Below are positions 1-8,184 of a stretch of 64,000 nt of DNA, one piece after another (the first letter of the stretch is position 1; every line of letters begins with the position of its first letter). Source of the DNA: a virus; the UHGV virus genome UHGV-0149956; one strand, written 5' to 3'. The translations under genes and the position numbers were made by a program. The notes under the pieces are model-generated. The model did not search any database and was not told where the DNA came from. It saw nothing but the letters and a program-made list of their open reading frames with translations.

Positions 1-377
1 CAAAGGTTTACCCAACGTTAAAATTACCTGATTTACGCGGTGAGTTTATCCGTGGCTGGGATGATGGGCGAGGGATTGACTCTGGTCGCTCTATTTTAAG
101 CGAGCAAGGATATGCAACGGAGGATCATGCTCACGGATTACCGTCAAAATCAACCGTAGCAACTGACCGCTCAATTAATTTCTACTTTGACGAGGCATGG
201 GCTACTAGTGGTAATACGGGAGTTATCAGATGGGGGAACACAAGCGATGCAGGATTGCCAGCCCCTAATTATGGAACTTTTAAAACATATAAACAGTCCG
301 TAGCTAATTTAGGTACTGCTGGCTTAGAAACCCGCCCTCGTAATATTGCATTTAATTATATTGTGAGGGCGGATTAA
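1..377 (+). CDS. Tail-fibre C-terminal cassette, 5' truncated by window edge, opposite orientation to the main array
   Basis: Frame 3 translates to KVYPTLKLPDLRGEFIRGWDDGRGIDSGR...ETRPRNIAFNYIVRAD, stop TAA 375-377; shares the conserved N-proximal and C-terminal blocks of the minus-strand cassettes. Confidence 0.7.
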   Translation, partial: KVYPTLKLPDLRGEFIRGWDDGRGIDSGRSILSEQGYATEDHAHGLPSKSTVATDRSINFYFDEAWATSGNTGVIRWGNTSDAGLPAPNYGTFKTYKQSVANLGTAGLETRPRNIAFNYIVRAD

Positions 378-382
378 TTATA

Positions 383-994
383 TCAACTGGCTGTAGAAAG
401 TTGTTTTTCAGGCCAGTTGAGATCTGGTGCCGTGGTTAAATCCATCGCGTTCAGCTCGTCTATATAATCTAGCACGGAGTTAAGCTGCGTGGTTTCTGCC
501 TGCGTCAACTTCCGTCCAGCCCGTAATTTCAACTGAATCAGACTAATGGAATCCATCGCAGTATCAATCAATGACTGACGTTTTGTTTCTGCTGCCTCTA
601 CAGCTGCACTATGTTGAGCCTCAGTATCAACCACCCATTTCTCTCCATCCCATTTGTCGTATGGTGTTAGCGGGGCGATAGTGGTTGTATTTTCCGGATA
701 GTCACCCAACACCGTGATTTCTTCGGGATTCCCAGTGTCAATGCTATAGACAGTTTCGCCACGATGATCTGGCACATACTCCCATGAACTTAAATCCTCT
801 GAACGGAGAATCGCATAACCTGCTTTATGTGAGCCTGGAGCATCCAAACAAGAATTTGCCGGAATACCAACGCCAACAGCAAGATATTCAGTTGATGCAG
901 AAATATATTCCCGATTACCACCATCATAGTTATAAACGATAATGTTTCCTGCCTGTATGGCTATAAGTTCGCTATTTAATATCGCATTATCCAT
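383..994 (-). CDS. U: Tail fibre assembly chaperone (Tfa / U-like)
   Basis: 203-aa ORF immediately after the last fibre cassette; start overlaps the cassette stop by 1 nt (TAATG); composition typical of Tfa family. Confidence 0.65.
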   Translation of the reverse strand: MDNAILNSELIAIQAGNIIVYNYDGGNREYISASTEYLAVGVGIPANSCLDAPGSHKAGYAILRSEDLSSWEYVPDHRGETVYSIDTGNPEEITVLGDYPENTTTIAPLTPYDKWDGEKWVVDTEAQHSAAVEAAETKRQSLIDTAMDSISLIQLKLRAGRKLTQAETTQLNSVLDYIDELNAMDLTTAPDLNWPEKQLSTAS

Positions 995-1452
995 TATGCT
1001 GCTCTCACAATATAATTGAAGGCAATGTTACGTGGGCGGGTTTCATTCCCCCCAGATAACTCCGTTCTGTATTGACTGGTAAATTTACCATTAATCGCTC
1101 CTTGCCGGACGGCGTTATCTGTCGACAACAGACTATCCCCCCCTCTGTCATTTGGCACCAATACCGTGTTATCCCACGCGTCCCATGACCGAATATTATG
1201 ATAATGACTTCCTGTTAACCACCCCTGTATGCTTAAGATGACCCTTCCCGCATCCACACCTCGCCCATCATCCCAACCACGGATAAACTCACCGCGTAAA
1301 TCCGGTAATTTATTGGTGGGGTAGGCCTTTGCCAGTTTGGGATACATTTCAGAAGAAAATGCTGCACCATTGCATTTTAGCCAGCCCGTTGGTGGTGTTT
1401 CTAAGGGCCACGGAACGGGCACACCAACAGGCAGTGCAGAGCCTTCCCCCAA
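994..1452 (-). CDS. Tail-fibre C-terminal cassette 5 (receptor-binding tip module)
   Basis: Conserved ~70-aa block GEGSALPVGVPVPWP...LRGEFIRGWDDGRG, variable middle, conserved end RPRNIAFNYIVRAA; begins at TTG inside a crossover-like site. Confidence 0.6.
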   Translation of the reverse strand: MGEGSALPVGVPVPWPLETPPTGWLKCNGAAFSSEMYPKLAKAYPTNKLPDLRGEFIRGWDDGRGVDAGRVILSIQGWLTGSHYHNIRSWDAWDNTVLVPNDRGGDSLLSTDNAVRQGAINGKFTSQYRTELSGGNETRPRNIAFNYIVRAA

Positions 1453-1469
1453 ACCAACGTTTTTATGTG
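1444..1469 (-). other. Crossover-like site 5
   Basis: TTCCCCCAAACC-AA-CGTTTTTATGTG. Confidence 0.5.
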
Positions 1470-1966
1470 GCCCTTACAATGTAATTAAAAGCAACGTTGC
1501 GGGGGCGCATTGATATCCATGCCCCGGTAAAATTATCCTCTGCCGTCCTTTGAGTGCCTGTTATGGAGTTATCTGATGATGCTGGAACATAATCGCTATT
1601 ATCTCCTGCTTTAGGATTAGCAGGGTTTCCAACAGTTATAACAGAATCAGCAGTAGCATAAGCGATACCTACTTTGACATTAGTAGTCAGATCGACACCG
1701 TAATAATCCTGCAAAGCTGTACGAATAAATGTTGCAGTCTGACCACTTAGCAATGAACGCCCTGTATCAATCCCTCTCGAATCATCCCAACCACGGATAA
1801 ACTCACCGCGTAAATCAGGTAATTTTAACGTTGGGTAAACCTTTGCCAGATTTGGGTACTTTTCAGAAGAAAATGCTGCTCCGTTACATTTCAGCCACCC
1901 CGTTGGTGGTGTGGCGGAGGGCCATGGAACAGGTACACCAACGGGCAGCGCCGAGCCTTCCCCTAA
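1463..1966 (-). CDS. Tail-fibre C-terminal cassette 4 (in-frame module without start codon)
   Basis: Frame is open from the crossover-like site to stop at 1463; the codon corresponding to the TTG of other cassettes is TTA here, so the ORF track only shows 1463-1753. Confidence 0.55.
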   Translation of the reverse strand, partial: LGEGSALPVGVPVPWPSATPPTGWLKCNGAAFSSEKYPNLAKVYPTLKLPDLRGEFIRGWDDSRGIDTGRSLLSGQTATFIRTALQDYYGVDLTTNVKVGIAYATADSVITVGNPANPKAGDNSDYVPASSDNSITGTQRTAEDNFTGAWISMRPRNVAFNYIVRAT

Positions 1967-1983
1967 ACCAACGTTTTTATGCC
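1958..1983 (-). other. Crossover-like site 4
   Basis: TTCCCCTAAACC-AA-CGTTTTTATGCC. Confidence 0.5.
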
Positions 1984-2438
1984 GCCCTTACGATATAATT
2001 AAAGGCAATATTACGAGGACGGTTTTCATTAGCTGTTGGCACGACACGAGAGGCGTCGAATCCAAGGTCATCGGTTTTGCCTATATCAGTTGTGTTATTC
2101 GGCATTCTCGCAGATCGTGTTCCTGCATCATAAAAAGCCCCTCTGATTGCATCAAAAGACATGCCAATCCCGCCATCTGCGAACCCCTCAATATTTCTTA
2201 TTGCATCCCCCTGTGAAGATAATAATTGTCGCCCGGCATCCACACCACGTCCGTCATCCCAGCCACGAATAAATTCACCGCGTAAATCCGGCAATTTATT
2301 AGTAGGGTAAGCCTTTGCCAGATTTGGGTACTTTTCAGAAGAAAATGCTGCTCCGTTACATTTCAGCCACCCCGTTGGCGGAGTGGCTGAGGGCCACGGA
2401 ACAGGTACGCCAACAGGCAATGCTGAGCCTTCCCCCAA
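1977..2438 (-). CDS. Tail-fibre C-terminal cassette 3
   Basis: Same conserved N block and C-terminal RPRNIAFNYIVRAA with distinct variable core. Confidence 0.6.
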   Translation of the reverse strand: MGEGSALPVGVPVPWPSATPPTGWLKCNGAAFSSEKYPNLAKAYPTNKLPDLRGEFIRGWDDGRGVDAGRQLLSSQGDAIRNIEGFADGGIGMSFDAIRGAFYDAGTRSARMPNNTTDIGKTDDLGFDASRVVPTANENRPRNIAFNYIVRAA

Positions 2439-2455
2439 ACCAACGTTTTCATGCC
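2430..2455 (-). other. Crossover-like site 3
   Basis: TTCCCCCAAACC-AA-CGTTTTCATGCC. Confidence 0.5.
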
Positions 2456-2877
2456 GCCCTTACGATATAATTAAACGCAATGTTACGAGGACGAATGGTT
2501 ACATAATTAACCCCATCACCTCGTGAAGGCCCTGCAAATGAAAAACGGGAAAATCCTGGTTGGTTAGAAACAATTTGGTCATAGTTATTGATTGAATGAC
2601 CAGACCCAATGTCGAAATTACCTCCGTAATGAGAAAAACTTGTACCATCCTGCCCTGAAAGCAGGGTACGTCCCGCATCAATCCCGCGCCCATCATCCCA
2701 GCCACGGATAAATTCACCGCGTAAATCCGGTAATTTATTGGTGGGGTAGGCTTTTGCCAGTTTGGGATACATTTCAGAAGAAAATGCTGCACCATTGCAT
2801 TTTAGCCAGCCCGTTGGTGGTGTTTCTAAGGGCCACGGAACGGGCACACCAACAGGCAGTGCAGAGCCTTCCCCCAA
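2449..2877 (-). CDS. Tail-fibre C-terminal cassette 2
   Basis: Same conserved blocks, distinct variable core. Confidence 0.6.
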   Translation of the reverse strand: MGEGSALPVGVPVPWPLETPPTGWLKCNGAAFSSEMYPKLAKAYPTNKLPDLRGEFIRGWDDGRGIDAGRTLLSGQDGTSFSHYGGNFDIGSGHSINNYDQIVSNQPGFSRFSFAGPSRGDGVNYVTIRPRNIAFNYIVRAA

Positions 2878-2894
2878 ACCAACGTTTTTATGCC
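2869..2894 (-). other. Crossover-like site 2
   Basis: TTCCCCCAAACC-AA-CGTTTTTATGCC. Confidence 0.5.
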
Positions 2895-3355
2895 GCCCTT
2901 ACGATGTAATTAAATGCAATATTACGGGGGCGGGTTTCAGATGCTGTACGAACTGAGCGAGAGGCGTCGAATGTCCAGTTATAAGAGCCATAACCCTCAA
3001 TAATTTCCGTTTCCTTTAGGCCTGTAGATAATACTTGACCATGTTGACTAAATGGCCCTGAACTAAGTACATCTCTAAAAAGCTGAGTACGCCCGAAAGA
3101 ACCAACAATATTCTGAATTGCATCATTCTGTGCAGATAATAAATTACGGCCAGAGTCAATCCCCCGCCCGTCATCCCAGCCGCGAATAAATTCGCCCCGT
3201 AGATCCGGCAATTTATTAGTAGGGTAAACCTTTGCCAGATTTGGGTACTTTTCAGAAGAAAATGCTGCACCATTGCATTTCAGCCACCCCGTTGGCGGTG
3301 TGGCTGAGGGCCATGGAACAGGTACACCAACGGGCAGTGCCGAGCCTTCCCCCAA
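2888..3355 (-). CDS. Tail-fibre C-terminal cassette 1
   Basis: Same conserved blocks, distinct variable core; lies 10 nt after the stop of the main fibre gene. Confidence 0.6.
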   Translation of the reverse strand: MGEGSALPVGVPVPWPSATPPTGWLKCNGAAFSSEKYPNLAKVYPTNKLPDLRGEFIRGWDDGRGIDSGRNLLSAQNDAIQNIVGSFGRTQLFRDVLSSGPFSQHGQVLSTGLKETEIIEGYGSYNWTFDASRSVRTASETRPRNIAFNYIVRAA

Positions 3356-3372
3356 ACCAACGTTTTTATGCC
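3347..3372 (-). other. Crossover-like site 1
   Basis: TTCCCCCAAACC-AA-CGTTTTTATGCC, direct repeat of site 0 left half and core; spans stop of S and start of cassette 1. Confidence 0.5.
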
Positions 3373-5390
3373 GCCCTTACGATGTAATTAAATGCAACGT
3401 TGCGAGGGCGAGTTTCTGTACCTACATTTCCACTAATTTCACCATAACGTTTAACACTACGAGAGCTAATAGCTCGTAGTGAGGAAGGCACCTTATGACC
3501 GGGTTCGTCCGTTTTAACTATTCCCCCGTCACCGTATGTAGCTAGTATTCCTGGATTTACGCCTTCCCGTGCACTTCCTGCGGCGAGTCCGTCCCCTGTC
3601 CATAATTCCATATAGTGTGCATGGTCCAAAATTGTGTGTGGCTGCCAATTAAGCAAAGCGCGGCCAGCATCCACCCCGCGCCCATCATCCCAGCCACGGA
3701 TAAATTCACCGCGTAAATCAGGTAATTTTAACGTTGGGTAAACCTTTGCCAGATTTGGGTACTTTTCAGAAGAAAATGCTGCACCATTGCATTTCAGCCA
3801 CCCCGTTGGCGGTGTGGCTGAGGGCCATGGAATAGGTACACCAACGGGCAGCGCCGAGCCTTCCCCTAAACCAAGGTAATCAAGAACGCTCTGAATACTG
3901 GTCTTACCAAGAATGGCGCGTCCAACACTTGTCAATGCAGTTAACGCGGCACGATCAACACCTGTGAAATAAGGGAGTTTATCTGCTGCTGTAGCTAGTG
4001 CCGCTAGAGCAGTGAGCGTAGCGTCTGCCGCTTGCTTTCCATTAGCCAAATCATATGCAGCCTTGACAGCTTTCGGTGTGGCGGCCAGCACTTCAGACGT
4101 GCTGTTAGTGGCACTACTGAGCTGAGTGATGCCTTTCGCTGTCAATGAAGCTGTTGGCACACCAGTGATCTGATTCCAGGGATGTGTATGACTGGATGGT
4201 GCCTTTCCGGCTGCTAGATCGTATGCAGCTTTAACCGCTTTTGGAGTTGCAGCTAATGTTTCAGAAGTGCTGTTGGTGTCGCTACTGAGCTGAACTATCC
4301 CTTTTTGTGTCGTGGTTGCATCCTGGGCTGTATACTTCCCGTTAGCCAAATCATATGCAGCCTTGACAGCTTTCGGTGTGGCGGCCAGCACTTCGGACGT
4401 ACTGTTAGTGGCACTACTGAGCTGAGTGATGCCTTTCGCTGTCAATGAAGCTGTTGGCACACCAGTGATCTGATTCCAGGGATGTGTATGACTGGATGGT
4501 GCCTTTCCGGCTGCTAGATCGTATGCAGCTTTAACCGCTTTTGGAGTTGCAGCTAATGTTTCAGAAGTGCTGTTGGTGTCGCTACTGAGCTGAACTATCC
4601 CTTTTTGTGTCGTGGTTGCATCCTGGGCTGTATACTTCCCGTTAGCCAAATCATATGCAGCCTTGACAGCTTTCGGTGTGGCGGCCAGCACTTCGGACGT
4701 ACTGTTAGTGGCACTACTGAGCTGAACTAATCCCTTTTGCGTTGTGCTTGCATCCTGCGCCGTATATTTGCTTTTCGCCAGATCGTAGGCTTTTTTAACT
4801 GCCAGCGAACTCGCAGCAACATCACTTCTGGTACTGGTTACAGAGTCTGAAATATCAATGCCGATCGTGCGGTTGATACGCTCGGATGTATCAATCATCT
4901 CTTGAGTAATGGTAGATACGCCAGCAGGGATATTCACCGTACAAACCAGCAGTTCCCCATCACCTAACTGATATGAATCGGTATAGGTTCTGGCAACAAA
5001 TTCAGCTGCATGAATATGTGACGCGGTATTCACCTGATAGGTATCTTCTCCAAGAAGGTATCTTCCCTTCAGCACAATTGCATATTTCTTGCCTGCGTTA
5101 AGTGCAAGAGAGATATCCTTACGATGCTGAATAGTTACCTGGTAGAATTCACCAATATCCACTGACGCCGCGCCAGCGGTTTTATCTCCATCCACTGAGG
5201 TGATTAACAGGTTCATTCCACCGCCAGGCTTAGGCAAGAAACCAGCATAAAATCCCGGGTCAACAATTCCCCTGAATTTTCGGTTTAGAGCGGCTGACAG
5301 ATATGGTTCGTGGTATTGCACATCAGCCACCAGAGCCAACGACTCGGGTGATGGGTAAGTAACCGATGTAACAACTGTAACGTCATTCAT
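3366..5390 (-). CDS. S: Tail fibre protein (S-like) with ~30-aa repeats and expressed C-terminal tip
   Basis: ATG at 5390 with AAGGA 5-8 nt upstream; internal repeats TAQDA-TTQKG-VQLSS-TNSTSE-LAATPKAVKAAYDLA; C-terminal 150 aa homologous to the downstream cassettes. Confidence 0.8.
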   Translation of the reverse strand: MNDVTVVTSVTYPSPESLALVADVQYHEPYLSAALNRKFRGIVDPGFYAGFLPKPGGGMNLLITSVDGDKTAGAASVDIGEFYQVTIQHRKDISLALNAGKKYAIVLKGRYLLGEDTYQVNTASHIHAAEFVARTYTDSYQLGDGELLVCTVNIPAGVSTITQEMIDTSERINRTIGIDISDSVTSTRSDVAASSLAVKKAYDLAKSKYTAQDASTTQKGLVQLSSATNSTSEVLAATPKAVKAAYDLANGKYTAQDATTTQKGIVQLSSDTNSTSETLAATPKAVKAAYDLAAGKAPSSHTHPWNQITGVPTASLTAKGITQLSSATNSTSEVLAATPKAVKAAYDLANGKYTAQDATTTQKGIVQLSSDTNSTSETLAATPKAVKAAYDLAAGKAPSSHTHPWNQITGVPTASLTAKGITQLSSATNSTSEVLAATPKAVKAAYDLANGKQAADATLTALAALATAADKLPYFTGVDRAALTALTSVGRAILGKTSIQSVLDYLGLGEGSALPVGVPIPWPSATPPTGWLKCNGAAFSSEKYPNLAKVYPTLKLPDLRGEFIRGWDDGRGVDAGRALLNWQPHTILDHAHYMELWTGDGLAAGSAREGVNPGILATYGDGGIVKTDEPGHKVPSSLRAISSRSVKRYGEISGNVGTETRPRNVAFNYIVRAA
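3861..3886 (-). other. Crossover-like site 0 (Din/invertase-family-like 26-mer) at constant/variable junction of S
   Basis: TTCCCCTAAACC-AA-GGTAATCAAGAA; resembles hix/gix/cix sites as recalled (12-bp half sites flanking a 2-bp AA core). Confidence 0.55.
4021..4725. repeat. Near-perfect 300-bp tandem repeat (2.3 copies) inside the fibre gene
   Basis: Sequence lines starting at 4321 and 4621 are identical, and lines 4141/4441, 4201/4501, 4261/4561 are identical; period exactly 300 bp. Confidence 0.9.
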
Positions 5391-5401
5391 CAAGCATATC
5401 C

Positions 5402-5836
5402 TTATGCTGTAGTCGAGTTTATGGCCATAACTGCGGTATATGTTTTGCCCACATACAGCGAGTCTTCTTGGACACAAATAATGGCGATTGGCTTATTCTC
5501 GTTATCCAGAACAACCAGAGTGTTGAATGGGTAGTTTTTCCCTTCCTGCAACTGACTTTGATCAAGGTCCATTCGGACAGTAATTATCCCGCCTGAGTAG
5601 GTTGGGACGAGGTTGATGGTGCAAAATTGACTGGTCAGTTCTGCCAGATCGAAAGCCTTTGGCAGTTCTCCAATCTCATAAGTGCCATCTCCTTTCTTAG
5701 TAACCAGTGAACTGGTACCGAAAACGGCCTTGCTGATTAAAAATCGAGAGCCTTTGTTAATGGACGATTCAGCGCGCCGCTGATAGTAATAGTCCAACAA
5801 CTGACTCTTATAGAGGTTTGTTGAGACGTCAGACAT
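5402..5836 (-). CDS. Tail fibre-associated structural protein (R-like)
   Basis: 144-aa ORF ending 12 nt upstream of S start; operon position. Confidence 0.45.
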   Translation of the reverse strand: MSDVSTNLYKSQLLDYYYQRRAESSINKGSRFLISKAVFGTSSLVTKKGDGTYEIGELPKAFDLAELTSQFCTINLVPTYSGGIITVRMDLDQSQLQEGKNYPFNTLVVLDNENKPIAIICVQEDSLYVGKTYTAVMAINSTTA

Positions 5837-5914
5837 GATTTTCCCTAATCAATGTTGTGAAGCCTCATTGTAAGATAAGTAACTTGTCACCCCGCCCTGC
5901 GGACGGGGTGATTG

Positions 5915-6754
5915 TCACGCATCGCTATCCAACAGCAAATCATCTGCGCGGGTGCGATCAAACGTAGGCGTTGCTTTCACAATAGTGCCGCCCGGCGTTG
6001 CAGTGATCGGGGCGTTAATCGACGTAACTTCAGTAAGCGAAGTTGTATCCGAAGTTTCAAACCAGCAGAATGCTTTTTCGGTATCAGAAATCTCATTCAA
6101 AGTGATCATGTCGGCCTGTTCATTTACAACAACCGACAAATAGAGCGTAAGCCCATCAAACACTATATGCAGTGGCAGTAGAGGCTTTACGAACTGATTA
6201 AACTTTCTGAGAATTTCTTCTGTAATTGCGGACTGATCTATCGTTCCAGTAATACCCATTGTCCGGGCCAAGTCGTTTATGGGAATACTGATCATTCCTC
6301 TGGAAGTCAGAAACATCTCGCCGAATGTGCCGCCGGTGGTTTCCAGTGTGCTTTCTGGAATCAGGACCGTGCCATAGGGATGACGTTCAAAGTCCACCGG
6401 AGCATATATGGGATCCCATAAAACCGATATACCGTTAAATTCGCGATAAATTGTCTGGTTTATAGGGCGTTCAGTACCCTTAAAATGGATCTCATCAAAC
6501 CGCTGTTGTAACAACATCGGAACGGAAGATGAATTCGACGTTCTGATAGTAAAAAACTGGCCAAGTTCATTTGTCCTAGTCTCCAGATCCTCCTTGCTCA
6601 TGGAGAAAATAGACTTCCGGTTGGTAATTCGCTCCAACCATGGGTCAACAAAGGTGTCCATCATTGACTGAACCAAATCAGCCAATGATTTATAAAGTAA
6701 TGACTTTTGCTTAGCTGATGTAAGCCGGTTATTAAACCAGGAACGCTGCATCAC
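5915..6754 (-). CDS. Virion structural protein, probable baseplate component
   Basis: 279-aa ORF, ATGA overlap with upstream gene; position in baseplate/fibre operon. Confidence 0.4.
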   Translation of the reverse strand: MMQRSWFNNRLTSAKQKSLLYKSLADLVQSMMDTFVDPWLERITNRKSIFSMSKEDLETRTNELGQFFTIRTSNSSSVPMLLQQRFDEIHFKGTERPINQTIYREFNGISVLWDPIYAPVDFERHPYGTVLIPESTLETTGGTFGEMFLTSRGMISIPINDLARTMGITGTIDQSAITEEILRKFNQFVKPLLPLHIVFDGLTLYLSVVVNEQADMITLNEISDTEKAFCWFETSDTTSLTEVTSINAPITATPGGTIVKATPTFDRTRADDLLLDSDA

Positions 6755-8184
6755 TCCTCCTCATACGAAATATTAAAGGTGGAGTTTTCTGTATCCAGAT
6801 AAACGAAATCGTAAAAGCCGTTGGACTCATTCCACTCGACAAATTCCAGATAAAAGTCGCGGAAATAACCCAGCGTTTCGATAAATGCCCAAACGTCTTT
6901 TTTCTTGATTAGGATGTACTTGCCGACACGGTTCGGATCAAAGAAAGTTGAGTCACGCCCAAATTTTGTTTCCAGTGCCGACTTCAGCTCATCAGTCACG
7001 TTCTCAATGGTCAGGCTTGCCGATATCCGCCCAGTGATGGTGATCTTAAAGGGTAGTTTTCTGACCTCTTTATACGAGAATTTCTTGTTCAACTCATTCG
7101 GCACCTTCTTAAAGGCGGCCAGGATCATTTCTTCAAGCTCTGACTGGCTTTTGTTTGGATGCCATCCTGAAATAAATATCTTATTGATATTCCGAACATT
7201 ATAAGCACCATCTAATTTCTCTTGCTGGCCTTCGCCCCATGCCTTTACCCAGGACAGTCCCGGGATGTTACGCACCAGAAAATACGTATAGTCCCCGCCC
7301 CATACGACCTGATCATCATAGGCAAGGTAATATTGTGCACGGTTACGTGTGATCTCCGTTGTTTCAGCATCGGTACCTGCGGTTATAGGTGTCGTTGTCT
7401 TAACTGAAATCAAATTAGCTAAATTAGCCGCAGAATCAACAGGAGTCAGGTTTTGGCCAGCAACCAGGGTTATATCGCCGTTGGTGCACCATACCTTAAG
7501 CGTAATTGTCGAGCCTTCTGGCGGTATTTGCCCAATTAGCCCATCGCCGAATCGGACACCCAACTGTTCGGATGGTTTATAAAACTCAACGTAGACCTGG
7601 CTTTTACTACCAGCTAACCGGAACATTGTGCTGGAAGACCACTGCGTGGTCTTACCATCGGTCGTCACGAATACTTCCAGCTTATAGCAGACAGCAGTGA
7701 GAGCCTTTGATAACACGACTTCCAGAAATTCTTTGGCAGCCGTAACGGTATATGTCACCTCCTGGATTTCCAACTGTGCCACTTCTACCGTACCGGTGCC
7801 GTCAACCAACCTGCATACATCCATAGTCATGTAAGGGTACTGGTCGTCAGATATTAAAGGCATGTTTTTGGGAATTACCGCTGGGGCATCTTCACTTGTG
7901 GCGGTGATCTCAATCATCCCCGATGACGGTGTTGGCTTGGTACCAACGTAACTATTCGTTTCTGCCGCTGCCAGGATAGAGGAACGCCGCGTCGCGGTCG
8001 ATATAAAGCCTTCAGCCAGCGCCGCATCGGCATACTGAAAGCACCTGTAGACAATCTGGGTAATAAACAATGTCAGCATCGAGACAAATTGAGAGCCGAC
8101 AAACTTCGACCAGAATGAATCTTTCTCGACAAGCTCTTCAAACTCTGCACGAATACTGTCTTTAGTCGGTGTTGTTTTACTCAT
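6751..8184 (-). CDS. Virion structural protein, probable baseplate wedge
   Basis: 477-aa ORF translationally coupled on both sides. Confidence 0.4.
   Translation of the reverse strand: MSKTTPTKDSIRAEFEELVEKDSFWSKFVGSQFVSMLTLFITQIVYRCFQYADAALAEGFISTATRRSSILAAAETNSYVGTKPTPSSGMIEITATSEDAPAVIPKNMPLISDDQYPYMTMDVCRLVDGTGTVEVAQLEIQEVTYTVTAAKEFLEVVLSKALTAVCYKLEVFVTTDGKTTQWSSSTMFRLAGSKSQVYVEFYKPSEQLGVRFGDGLIGQIPPEGSTITLKVWCTNGDITLVAGQNLTPVDSAANLANLISVKTTTPITAGTDAETTEITRNRAQYYLAYDDQVVWGGDYTYFLVRNIPGLSWVKAWGEGQQEKLDGAYNVRNINKIFISGWHPNKSQSELEEMILAAFKKVPNELNKKFSYKEVRKLPFKITITGRISASLTIENVTDELKSALETKFGRDSTFFDPNRVGKYILIKKKDVWAFIETLGYFRDFYLEFVEWNESNGFYDFVYLDTENSTFNISYEEE

Follow-up and report, generated by a model that had tools for sequence, protein, structure and literature searches.

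One tfa gene and seven fiber tips

The first 5.9 kb of the UHGV virus genome UHGV-0149956, which was analyzed as a stretch of 64,000 nucleotides (the window), hold, on the minus strand, the end of the tail-fiber operon of a P1-like phage-plasmid and raise the question of how a single tail-fiber assembly gene, tfa, could serve seven alternative fiber tips. The tips are encoded by cassettes designated A to G and arranged in what is, judged by its sequence, a multiple-inversion host-range switch of the p15B/Min type. The explanation that we favor, and to which we assign a probability of about 70%, is that Tfa is a generalist chaperone of the lambda/HK97 type that recognizes a scaffold held constant throughout this array. 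Service of all tips by the single Tfa is supported by comparison with related loci, and from the same comparisons we infer that it would act on each of the seven, that it would bind the scaffold, and where on the scaffold it would do so.

The tfa gene (positions 383 to 994, minus strand) encodes a protein of 203 amino acids that matched Pfam Caudo_TAP (PF02413; E 3e-30) and phrog_105, 'tail fiber assembly' (E 1e-92), shared 76% identity with HK97 Tfa and has a predicted chaperone activity on the fiber trimer. Its ATG (994 to 992) overlaps the TAA of cassette F (996 to 994) as TAATG, a junction also found between tip and tfa in lambda, HK97, EtG, and 503046. The first-pass annotation of this DNA had described tfa as translationally coupled to the last cassette; the overlap bears this out, but coupling can be real only in isomers in which F is fused to the fiber gene S, and F is silent here. 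At its other end tfa converges on cassette G, the stop codons (375 to 377 for G, 383 to 385 for tfa) being 5 bp apart, which leaves no room for a U' gene, and the earlier remark that G ends without one was correct.

A search of the window by tblastn with this Tfa, HK97 Tfa, and the U and U' proteins of P1 and Mu identified no second tfa-like gene. With Tfa as the query, IMG/VR yielded 80 loci at 77 to 100% identity (referred to by L numbers), and all of the Min-type arrays examined among them (L001, L002, L005-L017, and L019-L025) contained a single tfa, with L018 as the exception. Against plasmids, tblastn with Tfa found 611 places in 586 records, with one place in each listed record at ≥98% identity. 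The proposal that one tfa serves the whole array was thus upheld by the Min-type arrays (L018 aside) and by the plasmid search, and a second copy is not expected to the left of the window. The exception, L018, carries an inverted duplication at 4058-7164 ([GNTGGSET tip > < tfa < F][F > tfa > < GNTGGSET tip]) and is the sole case with two tfa copies; it may reflect a genuine palindromic rearrangement or have arisen from mixed isomers that were assembled together.

Wherever an upstream open reading frame (ORF) was present in the IMG/VR loci, it was a fiber gene ending in the tail motif shared by the cassettes. An F-type tip was joined to tfa in every Min-type array examined except L013, and the tip convergent after tfa was of the G type in the group with 100% identity and of the GNTGGSET type in the group with 83% identity. 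Outside such arrays, in single-tip prophages resembling P2 and HK97, the same Tfa family directly followed no fewer than 11 tip types. Across 11 tip clusters, the variable regions were 18 to 50% identical, compared with 83 to 97% for the collars, 78 to 97% for the Tfa N-domain, and 70 to 99% for the Tfa C-domain. The identity of the Tfa N-domain averaged 94% within a tip type and 87% between tip types, with overlapping ranges, and this difference is what linkage alone would give. Such comparisons suggest that one lambda/HK97-type Tfa is indifferent to the receptor-binding insert and tracks the scaffold of collar plus tail alone.

Each cassette consists of a conserved collar of 70 amino acids, a variable stretch of 58 to 83 amino acids, and the conserved tail, and in every full cassette the collar matched Phage Tail Collar (PF07484; E ~1e-15). 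As collar and tail are constant in every cassette, the tips differ in the insert alone. Cassette A (3366 to 3872, minus strand; 168 amino acids) is fused to Sc, the constant part of S, and hence expressed. The silent cassettes B to F follow S on the same strand, packed 10 bp apart: B (2888 to 3358; 156 amino acids), C (2449 to 2880; 143 amino acids), D (1977 to 2441; 154 amino acids), E (1463 to 1969; 168 amino acids), and F (994 to 1455; 153 amino acids), the last being the only tip joined to tfa. Cassette E is full and intact, the 96 amino acids given for it in the ORF list being due to a TTA where other cassettes have TTG. Of cassette G (1 to 377, plus strand), the window holds the C-terminal 124 amino acids, its start and crossover site lying off the window; full-length G-type cassettes were present in L001, L002, L005, and L008-L011.

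Relatives of tips A, B, E, and G, with variable regions 73 to 98% identical, occurred as the sole tip of a prophage with this Tfa family directly after it. The variable region of A shared 95 to 98% identity with the sole tips, each preceding a Tfa, of L028, L048, and L078, that of B was 96% identical to the sole tip in L032, and that of E was 73 to 93% identical to sole tips in L065, L068, and L081. Counterparts of G with 75% identity in the variable region, each followed by its own co-oriented Tfa, were found in L035, L042, and L046. Cassette C resembles the tip of phage 683R1 (by eye, unscored), and the Tfa after that tip is 53% identical to that of the window. The nearest single-tip relatives of D were just 44 to 45% identical in the variable region, and F-type tips were found solely beside the array Tfa.

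A natural control was provided by two-state invertible prophages such as L054, in which a collar-tip fiber and its Tfa are followed by U'-Sv' on the other strand and then by an invertase. The Sv' of this type has a different fold (PF21882) without collar or tail, and is accompanied by its own Tfa of 150 amino acids that shares the C-domain only. More distant homologues of the window Tfa (Erwinia EtG, 503046, 683R1, lambda, and Y. pestis pMT1; 37 to 57% identity) follow fibers ending in ..NIAFNYI[IV]R.., and the type of Tfa N-domain therefore stays linked to the collar-plus-tail scaffold down to 37% Tfa identity.

Tfa comprises an N-domain (approximately residues 1 to 125) and a conserved C-domain (approximately residues 129 to 198). 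A profile of 74 diverse Tfa homologues matched Mu TfaU (PDB 5YVQ_B) over residues 129 to 198 only (E 2e-14), which fits the modular model of a variable fiber-binding N-domain and a conserved trimerizing C-domain (PMC9608196, PMC7291167). The diversity set was obtained from a representative search; the protein homologue search gave only relatives with 76 to 91% identity. The N-domain did not stand out when conservation was computed per column across the diverse Tfa sequences. In precomputed domain assignments, PF28596.1 appears as a second family in all close relatives of Tfa, and the Pfam search performed here gave PF02413 alone; PF28596.1 probably models an N-terminal domain specific to Tfa of the lambda/HK97 type. 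The N-domain was also considered as a mimic of the collar. A weak BLASTP similarity between Tfa residues 39 to 88 and the collar (AVGVGIPANS..VPDHRGETVY and ALPVGVPVPWP..LPDLRGEFIRG; E 0.037) recurred with every cassette. This candidate was rejected, as profile-profile comparison of 92 diverse Tfa sequences with the collars (hhalign) assigned a probability of 2.9% and matched only a 16-column ..PDxRGE.. stretch; a Pfam search of the N-domain at E values up to 10 returned no Collar matches.

The constant scaffold and competing explanations

Translated in all six frames, the 64 kb contained the 13-residue motif RPRN[IV]AFNYIVRA seven times and no more, each copy lying at the end of a cassette with a single residue after it. 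A common tail of 14 amino acids had been noticed at first sight, and all seven cassettes do share a tail, but its invariant core is 13 amino acids long and the 16-mer then quoted, ETRPRNIAFNYIVRAA, is exact in B and F only. The deviations are V for I in A; TI, EN, and SM before RPRN in C, D, and E, respectively; and a final residue of T in E and D in G. Among the seven cassettes, pairwise comparison of the 13 tail codons gave 110 synonymous and 21 nonsynonymous differences, and 10 of the 13 codons varied synonymously with the amino acid fixed. This synonymous excess indicates that the constraint acts on the protein. The same nucleotides carry other signals: the left half of the next crossover site spans the last two tail codons, the stop codon, and 5 nucleotides, and the V-R codons of the tail supply a Shine-Dalgarno-like GT[GA]AG[GA] 8 to 11 nucleotides ahead of the tfa ATG (GTGAGA in F; GTGAGG or GTAAGG at the same place before tfa in lambda, HK97, EtG, and 503046).

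Collar and tail both have counterparts in T4. The collar aligned to the T4 gp37 tip construct 2XGF (chain residues 27 to 91; E 7e-16) and the tail to the last 23 residues of that construct (..ENTVKNIAFNYIVRLA). T4 gp37 itself terminates in ..NIAFNYIVRLA, and T4 gp12 has ..ETRPWNISLNYIIK near its end. The terminus of lambda Stf is ..ENTVKNIAFNYIVRLA and that of HK97 Stf is ..ENRPRNIAFNYIVRAV, the latter with the collar GLGEGSALPVGVPVPWP as in the window. A tail-like motif, ..ENRPKNIAVMYIIK, was also found internally in a short tail fiber of 554 amino acids, at residues 290 to 303. By textbook accounts, both gp37 and gp12 are assembled with gp57A, and gp37 with gp38 in addition, without any Tfa; the presence of the tail in two proteins that fold without Tfa argues that it is no dedicated Tfa tag. 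In this fold the chain leaves the collar for the head, turns around there, and runs back to the collar (PMC12609058, PMC7291167). Given this return and the alignment of the tail to the end of 2XGF, the tail would most simply be, by analogy, a strand that closes the constant collar scaffold, at the fiber-proximal and not the distal end of the tip.

The cassettes are short-insert variants of the gp37 fold, like the tip of HK97 Stf, and no long needle of HxH repeats with metal sites was found in them. A single HxH occurs shortly after the collar in A (HAH, at approximately 3630 to 3640), F (HYH, 1205 to 1215), and G (HAH, 127 to 135), and B, D, and E have none. The HxH of A, F, and G sits where needles of the gp37 type carry their metal-binding HxH repeats.

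If Tfa is a generalist, the array could work as follows. An invertase would recombine the 26-bp crossover sites and so fuse any cassette in frame to the constant part of S. Every cassette would be a complete tip of the gp37/Stf type, its tail running back to the collar and completing it, by analogy with gp37. The Tfa N-domain would recognize collar plus tail and not the variable insert, the conserved C-domain would drive trimerization, and one tfa would be enough because what is recognized is shared by all tips. F and tfa would represent the ancestral stf-tfa pair, joined by TAATG as in lambda and HK97, and the remaining cassettes would be tips that joined the array without chaperone genes of their own. 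The tail is kept mainly by selection on the protein, its last codons carrying the crossover half-site and the Shine-Dalgarno-like signal as well.

The first-pass annotation had suggested that the tail may be the docking element of the chaperone, and an explanation of this kind, in which the C-terminal 13 to 14 amino acids are themselves the peptide bound by Tfa and are conserved for that reason, has to be weighed against recognition of the whole scaffold. The tail does not vary among the seven cassettes, every fiber found ahead of a Tfa of the lambda/HK97 type has it, even where Tfa identity falls to 37%, and tips of another fold that lack it come with a different Tfa N-domain. Montag and Henning reportedly found in 1987 that lambda Tfa can replace T4 gp38 in the assembly of gp37, and gp37 and lambda Stf share the tail; this would fit recognition of a shared scaffold and does not locate the contact. 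Against a docking peptide, the 70-amino-acid collar is as conserved and as linked to the Tfa family, so that the data cannot single out the tail, and the motif is found in T4 gp12, which by textbook accounts uses gp57A and no Tfa, and internally in the short tail fiber of 554 amino acids. A C-terminus of the gp37 type returns to the collar (PMC12609058) and the tail is thus probably buried in the trimer, leaving no free tag, and its last codons are further constrained by the crossover half-site and the Shine-Dalgarno-like stretch. As it was first put, the docking proposal is therefore unsupported, the tail being shared with T4 gp37, gp12, and lambda Stf, returning to the collar, and being inseparable from it; we consider the proposal unlikely, though it is the strongest of the rivals. 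A quite different origin of the shared tail, as a by-product at the DNA level of the recombination site or of gene conversion, without protein function, would find some basis in the overlap of the left half GGCATAAAAACG of each internal site with the end of the cassette before it (two codons and the stop), and in mosaic collar haplotypes (LETPP..EMYPKLAKA and SATPP..EKYPNLAKV) that point to recombination between cassettes. Merely ~7 of the 42 tail nucleotides lie inside a site, however, and the excess of synonymous differences (110 to 21, with 10 of the 13 codons varying silently) is that of a protein-level constraint; F and G keep the tail though no site follows them, and it is conserved in lambda, HK97, T4, and P2-like fibers outside inversion systems. 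As the main cause, a by-product is largely refuted and was rejected, and it retains only a very slight probability.

It could also be that tfa serves only the linked cassette F, as the remnant of a stf-tfa pair, folding of the remaining cassettes then needing no dedicated chaperone or relying on factors of the host or of other phages. In the arrays examined, the TAATG junction joins tfa to an F-type tip alone, with one exception, and such tips are found just beside the array Tfa; G is never co-transcribed with tfa, and in most deposited isomers tfa is antisense to S and the cassettes are nonetheless intact. Opposed to this is the finding that sole-tip relatives of A, B, E, and G (73 to 98%) and a C-like tip directly precede their own Tfa of this family, which argues that A, B, C-like, E, and G tips normally use such a chaperone. 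In addition, U of P1, a sister system, was shown to be essential by CRISPR interference (PMC10695390). Restriction of Tfa to F consequently appears improbable, clearly more so than a docking peptide.

Orientation and expression of tfa

Several observations weigh against a generalist Tfa. Its action on tips other than F is deduced from comparison of sequences, and the small excess of N-domain identity within tip types could reflect fine tuning beyond linkage. AlphaFold2 prediction of cassette F, for which the seven window cassettes formed the alignment, was uninformative (predicted local distance difference test [pLDDT] score, 35; predicted template modeling [pTM] score, 0.14), and the packing of tail on collar thus rests on homology to gp37; a low score is expected for one chain of an intertwined trimer. 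The tfa gene is part of the invertible DNA, and as no crossover site separates it from the convergent G, a phage with G fused to S (L002, L008) would never co-transcribe tfa from the late promoter LPs. Among the 13 related loci in which S was visible, tfa was antisense to S in 8 and co-oriented with it in 5. Neither a late-promoter box nor a convincing sigma-70 promoter was identified upstream of tfa, and in the window approximately 2.4 kb of untranslated cassettes lie between the S stop codon and tfa, which could expose the transcript to Rho polarity.

The same problem arises with any tip when the F-tfa unit is inverted, tfa then being likewise antisense to the fiber operon. In relatives, the invertase gene and, past it, the lysis genes have the orientation of S, and nothing therefore reads back into the array. 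The -22 box of the P1-type late promoter LPs, AAGTTACTT (5877 to 5885, minus strand, upstream of R), which drives the R-S operon and is identical to the annotated P1 LPs and LPdar boxes, had three exact matches in the window and none inside the array on either strand. LPs was the sole promoter identified for the operon. Sigma-70-like matches in the array were no commoner than in shuffled sequence, the flank on the invertase side had just a poor leftward -10 (TATAGG), and no strong terminator was found on the operon strand across the array. As F is not translated in the window, the TAATG overlap provides no coupling, and translation of tfa has to begin from a weak Shine-Dalgarno sequence of its own.

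Elsewhere, tips of the G type retain a co-oriented Tfa, and G is intact in the arrays. The antisense position of tfa with G would be explained by an orientation-independent promoter that escaped detection, by Tfa-free folding of some collar-type tips, or by isomers that are defective in fibers. It is conceivable, though less likely than not, that inversion regulates chaperone supply along with tip choice; if many isomers do produce fiber-defective particles, the host-range switch would gain a concealed ON/OFF level. The antisense tfa poses a testable question, namely, how multi-inversion systems keep accessory genes expressed. In L001 (plasmid pA338_p0), the F cassette upstream of tfa at 6994-7452 was frameshifted, leaving an ORF of 72 amino acids, and tfa was 100% identical to that of the window, which indicates that silent cassettes can decay without loss of tfa.

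The inversion system and its relatives

The assignment to the Min type is based on crossover sites of the Din type, on the permuted cassettes and the invertase of relatives, and on the match of a related plasmid to p15B. The site at the Sc/Sv junction, TTCTTGATTACC TT GGTTTAGGGGAA (3861 to 3886, minus strand), consists of two 12-bp half-sites and a 2-bp core, the organization of gix and hix, and its half-sites are similar to the annotated cix sites of P1. Five internal sites, which read GGCATAAAAACG TT GGTTTGGGGGAA, follow on the same strand. The first (3347 to 3372) covers with its left half the last two codons and stop of A; the others are at 2869 to 2894, 2430 to 2455, 1958 to 1983, and 1444 to 1469, the last forming the left boundary of the F-tfa-G' unit. 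All six share a conserved half, GGTTT[GA]GGGGAA, with a TT core, of which none would be expected by chance, and all are in one (direct) orientation; a seventh site, that of G, would sit inverted just off the left edge of the window. The arrays of relatives contained 2 to 10 sites in both orientations. Crossover falls at ..VLDYL|GLGEGSALP.., ahead of every cassette, which allows in-frame fusion of any of them to Sc at YL|GLGEG. Natural isomers were present among the relatives: L001, L002, and L005-L011 share an identical Tfa, their cassettes A to G are permuted, and S is fused to varying tips.

The collars fall into two haplotypes, LETPP..EMYPKLAKAYPTN in C and F and SATPP..EKYPNLAK[VA]YPT[LN] in A, B, D, and E. 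A given tip has the other collar or a mosaic one in relatives, the F cassette of L002, for example, combining LETPP with EKYPNLAKVYPTLK. Such mosaics point to homologous exchange between cassettes, beyond site-specific inversion.

No serine invertase was seen in the annotated positions 1 to 8000, the remainder of the window not having been scanned for a recombinase. Relatives encode, ~45 bp beyond the terminal site, an invertase of the resolvase family (190 amino acids; Resolvase and HTH_7 domains) with 74% identity to P1 Cin, and a gene for a Cin/Pin-like serine invertase presumably lies just past the left edge of the window. In L001, L002, and L005-L024 the start of this gene was always ~45 bp outside the terminal site, with the gene reading away from the array, opposite to P1 cin. 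From this position and direction, its promoter would overlap the site or sit in the last cassette, or the gene would be read through from the fiber operon; such an arrangement would tie invertase expression to late transcription or to whichever cassette is last. A shufflon, with its tyrosine recombinase Rci, and a diversity-generating retroelement were both considered and rejected, since the crossover sites and the recombinase of relatives are of the Din serine-invertase type.

The array belongs to a type of system already known since 1990-92 and has more cassettes than p15B, with the same parts. The Min system of p15B, from E. coli 15T-, was reportedly described by Sandmeier, Iida, Arber et al. 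in 1990-1992, and its array is reported to have six cassettes; the window has at least seven and relatives have up to 10. Shared features are the P1-related IncY backbone, a constant 5' part of S combined with several 3' cassettes at 26-bp sites, presumably by a Din-family invertase, and, in relatives, an invertase that reads away from the array, unlike P1 cin. The cassette family is shared as well: a 5-kb segment of pMCR_SCKP-LL83, a database match of this window (H34), is 99% identical to the min region of p15B, and the gene table of that plasmid lists a single tfaE, between the cassettes and pin (PMC5786510).

Positions 4702-6000 of the window are 96 to 97% identical at the DNA level to the R-S region of P1 and P7, and the region is matched, in numerous separate segments, by hundreds of IncY plasmids from E. 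coli, Klebsiella, and Salmonella. In P1-like IncY plasmids the same segments occur at many places and in many orders, with 5 to 17 megablast places per plasmid. The Min-type switch occurs in hundreds of sequenced plasmids of these three hosts, some of them with mcr-1 or extended-spectrum β-lactamase (ESBL) genes.

The two-state segments of Mu (G, gin), P1 (C, cin), and P2-like prophages of the L054 type also combine a serine invertase, sites at the Sc/Sv junction, and alternative C-terminal fiber parts with a Tfa/U gene directly downstream of the tip. They differ in having two tips, each with a co-oriented U or U', whereas the window combines many tips from a single family with one Tfa, and its inverted tip lacks a U'. 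The contrast first drawn with Mu and P1 was sound in that both have the Sv-U/U'-Sv' layout, but it compared unlike things: the tips of Mu and P1 are of another family, ending in ..INGTWYN.., and their U and U' share only the C-domain with the Tfa of the window. The complex of Mu TfaU with its fiber (PDB 5YVQ; North et al. 2019) is alike in having a modular chaperone, with the C-domain match at E 2e-14, but the N-domains are unalignable and the Mu fiber tip is structurally unlike tips of the lambda/T4 type (PMC7291167).

The switch is properly compared with p15B Min, and the pair of tip and chaperone with Stf-Tfa of lambda and HK97. The latter share with the window the collar (GLGEGSALPVGVPVPWP.. 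in HK97), the tail, the TAATG junction, and GTGAGG or GTAAGG before the ATG, and differ in having one fixed tip and no inversion. T4 gp37 and gp12 differ in their use of gp57A, with gp38 for gp37 (by textbook accounts), and no Tfa, and gp37 has a long HxH needle compared with the short inserts of 58 to 83 amino acids in the window; the collar domain, the tail motif, and the return of the chain to the collar (PMC12609058) are common to both. If a single Tfa does serve any tip built on this scaffold, many tips could be grafted with one chaperone at the GLGEG junction of engineered fibers, including lambda stf chimeras, P1 or P2 delivery particles, and tailocins.

Upstream of the array, the first gene of the fiber operon is R (5402 to 5836, minus strand; 144 amino acids), with 96 to 97% DNA identity to R of P1 and P7. 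The ATG of S lies 11 nucleotides past the R stop, the same spacing as in P1, and as now assembled S extends from 5390 to 3366 on the minus strand and encodes 674 amino acids. A search of NCBIfam gave no matches for Tfa, cassette F, or R. The constant part, Sc (3873 to 5390), contains six Phage_fiber_2 repeats and, besides these, a perfect tandem duplication (at about 3441-4640) of a block of 100 amino acids (300 bp), GKYTAQDATTTQKGIVQLSSDTNSTSE...AYDLAN, which may be a recent change of fiber-shaft length. Terminator-like matches at 4224 and 4524, 300 bp apart, mirror this duplication.

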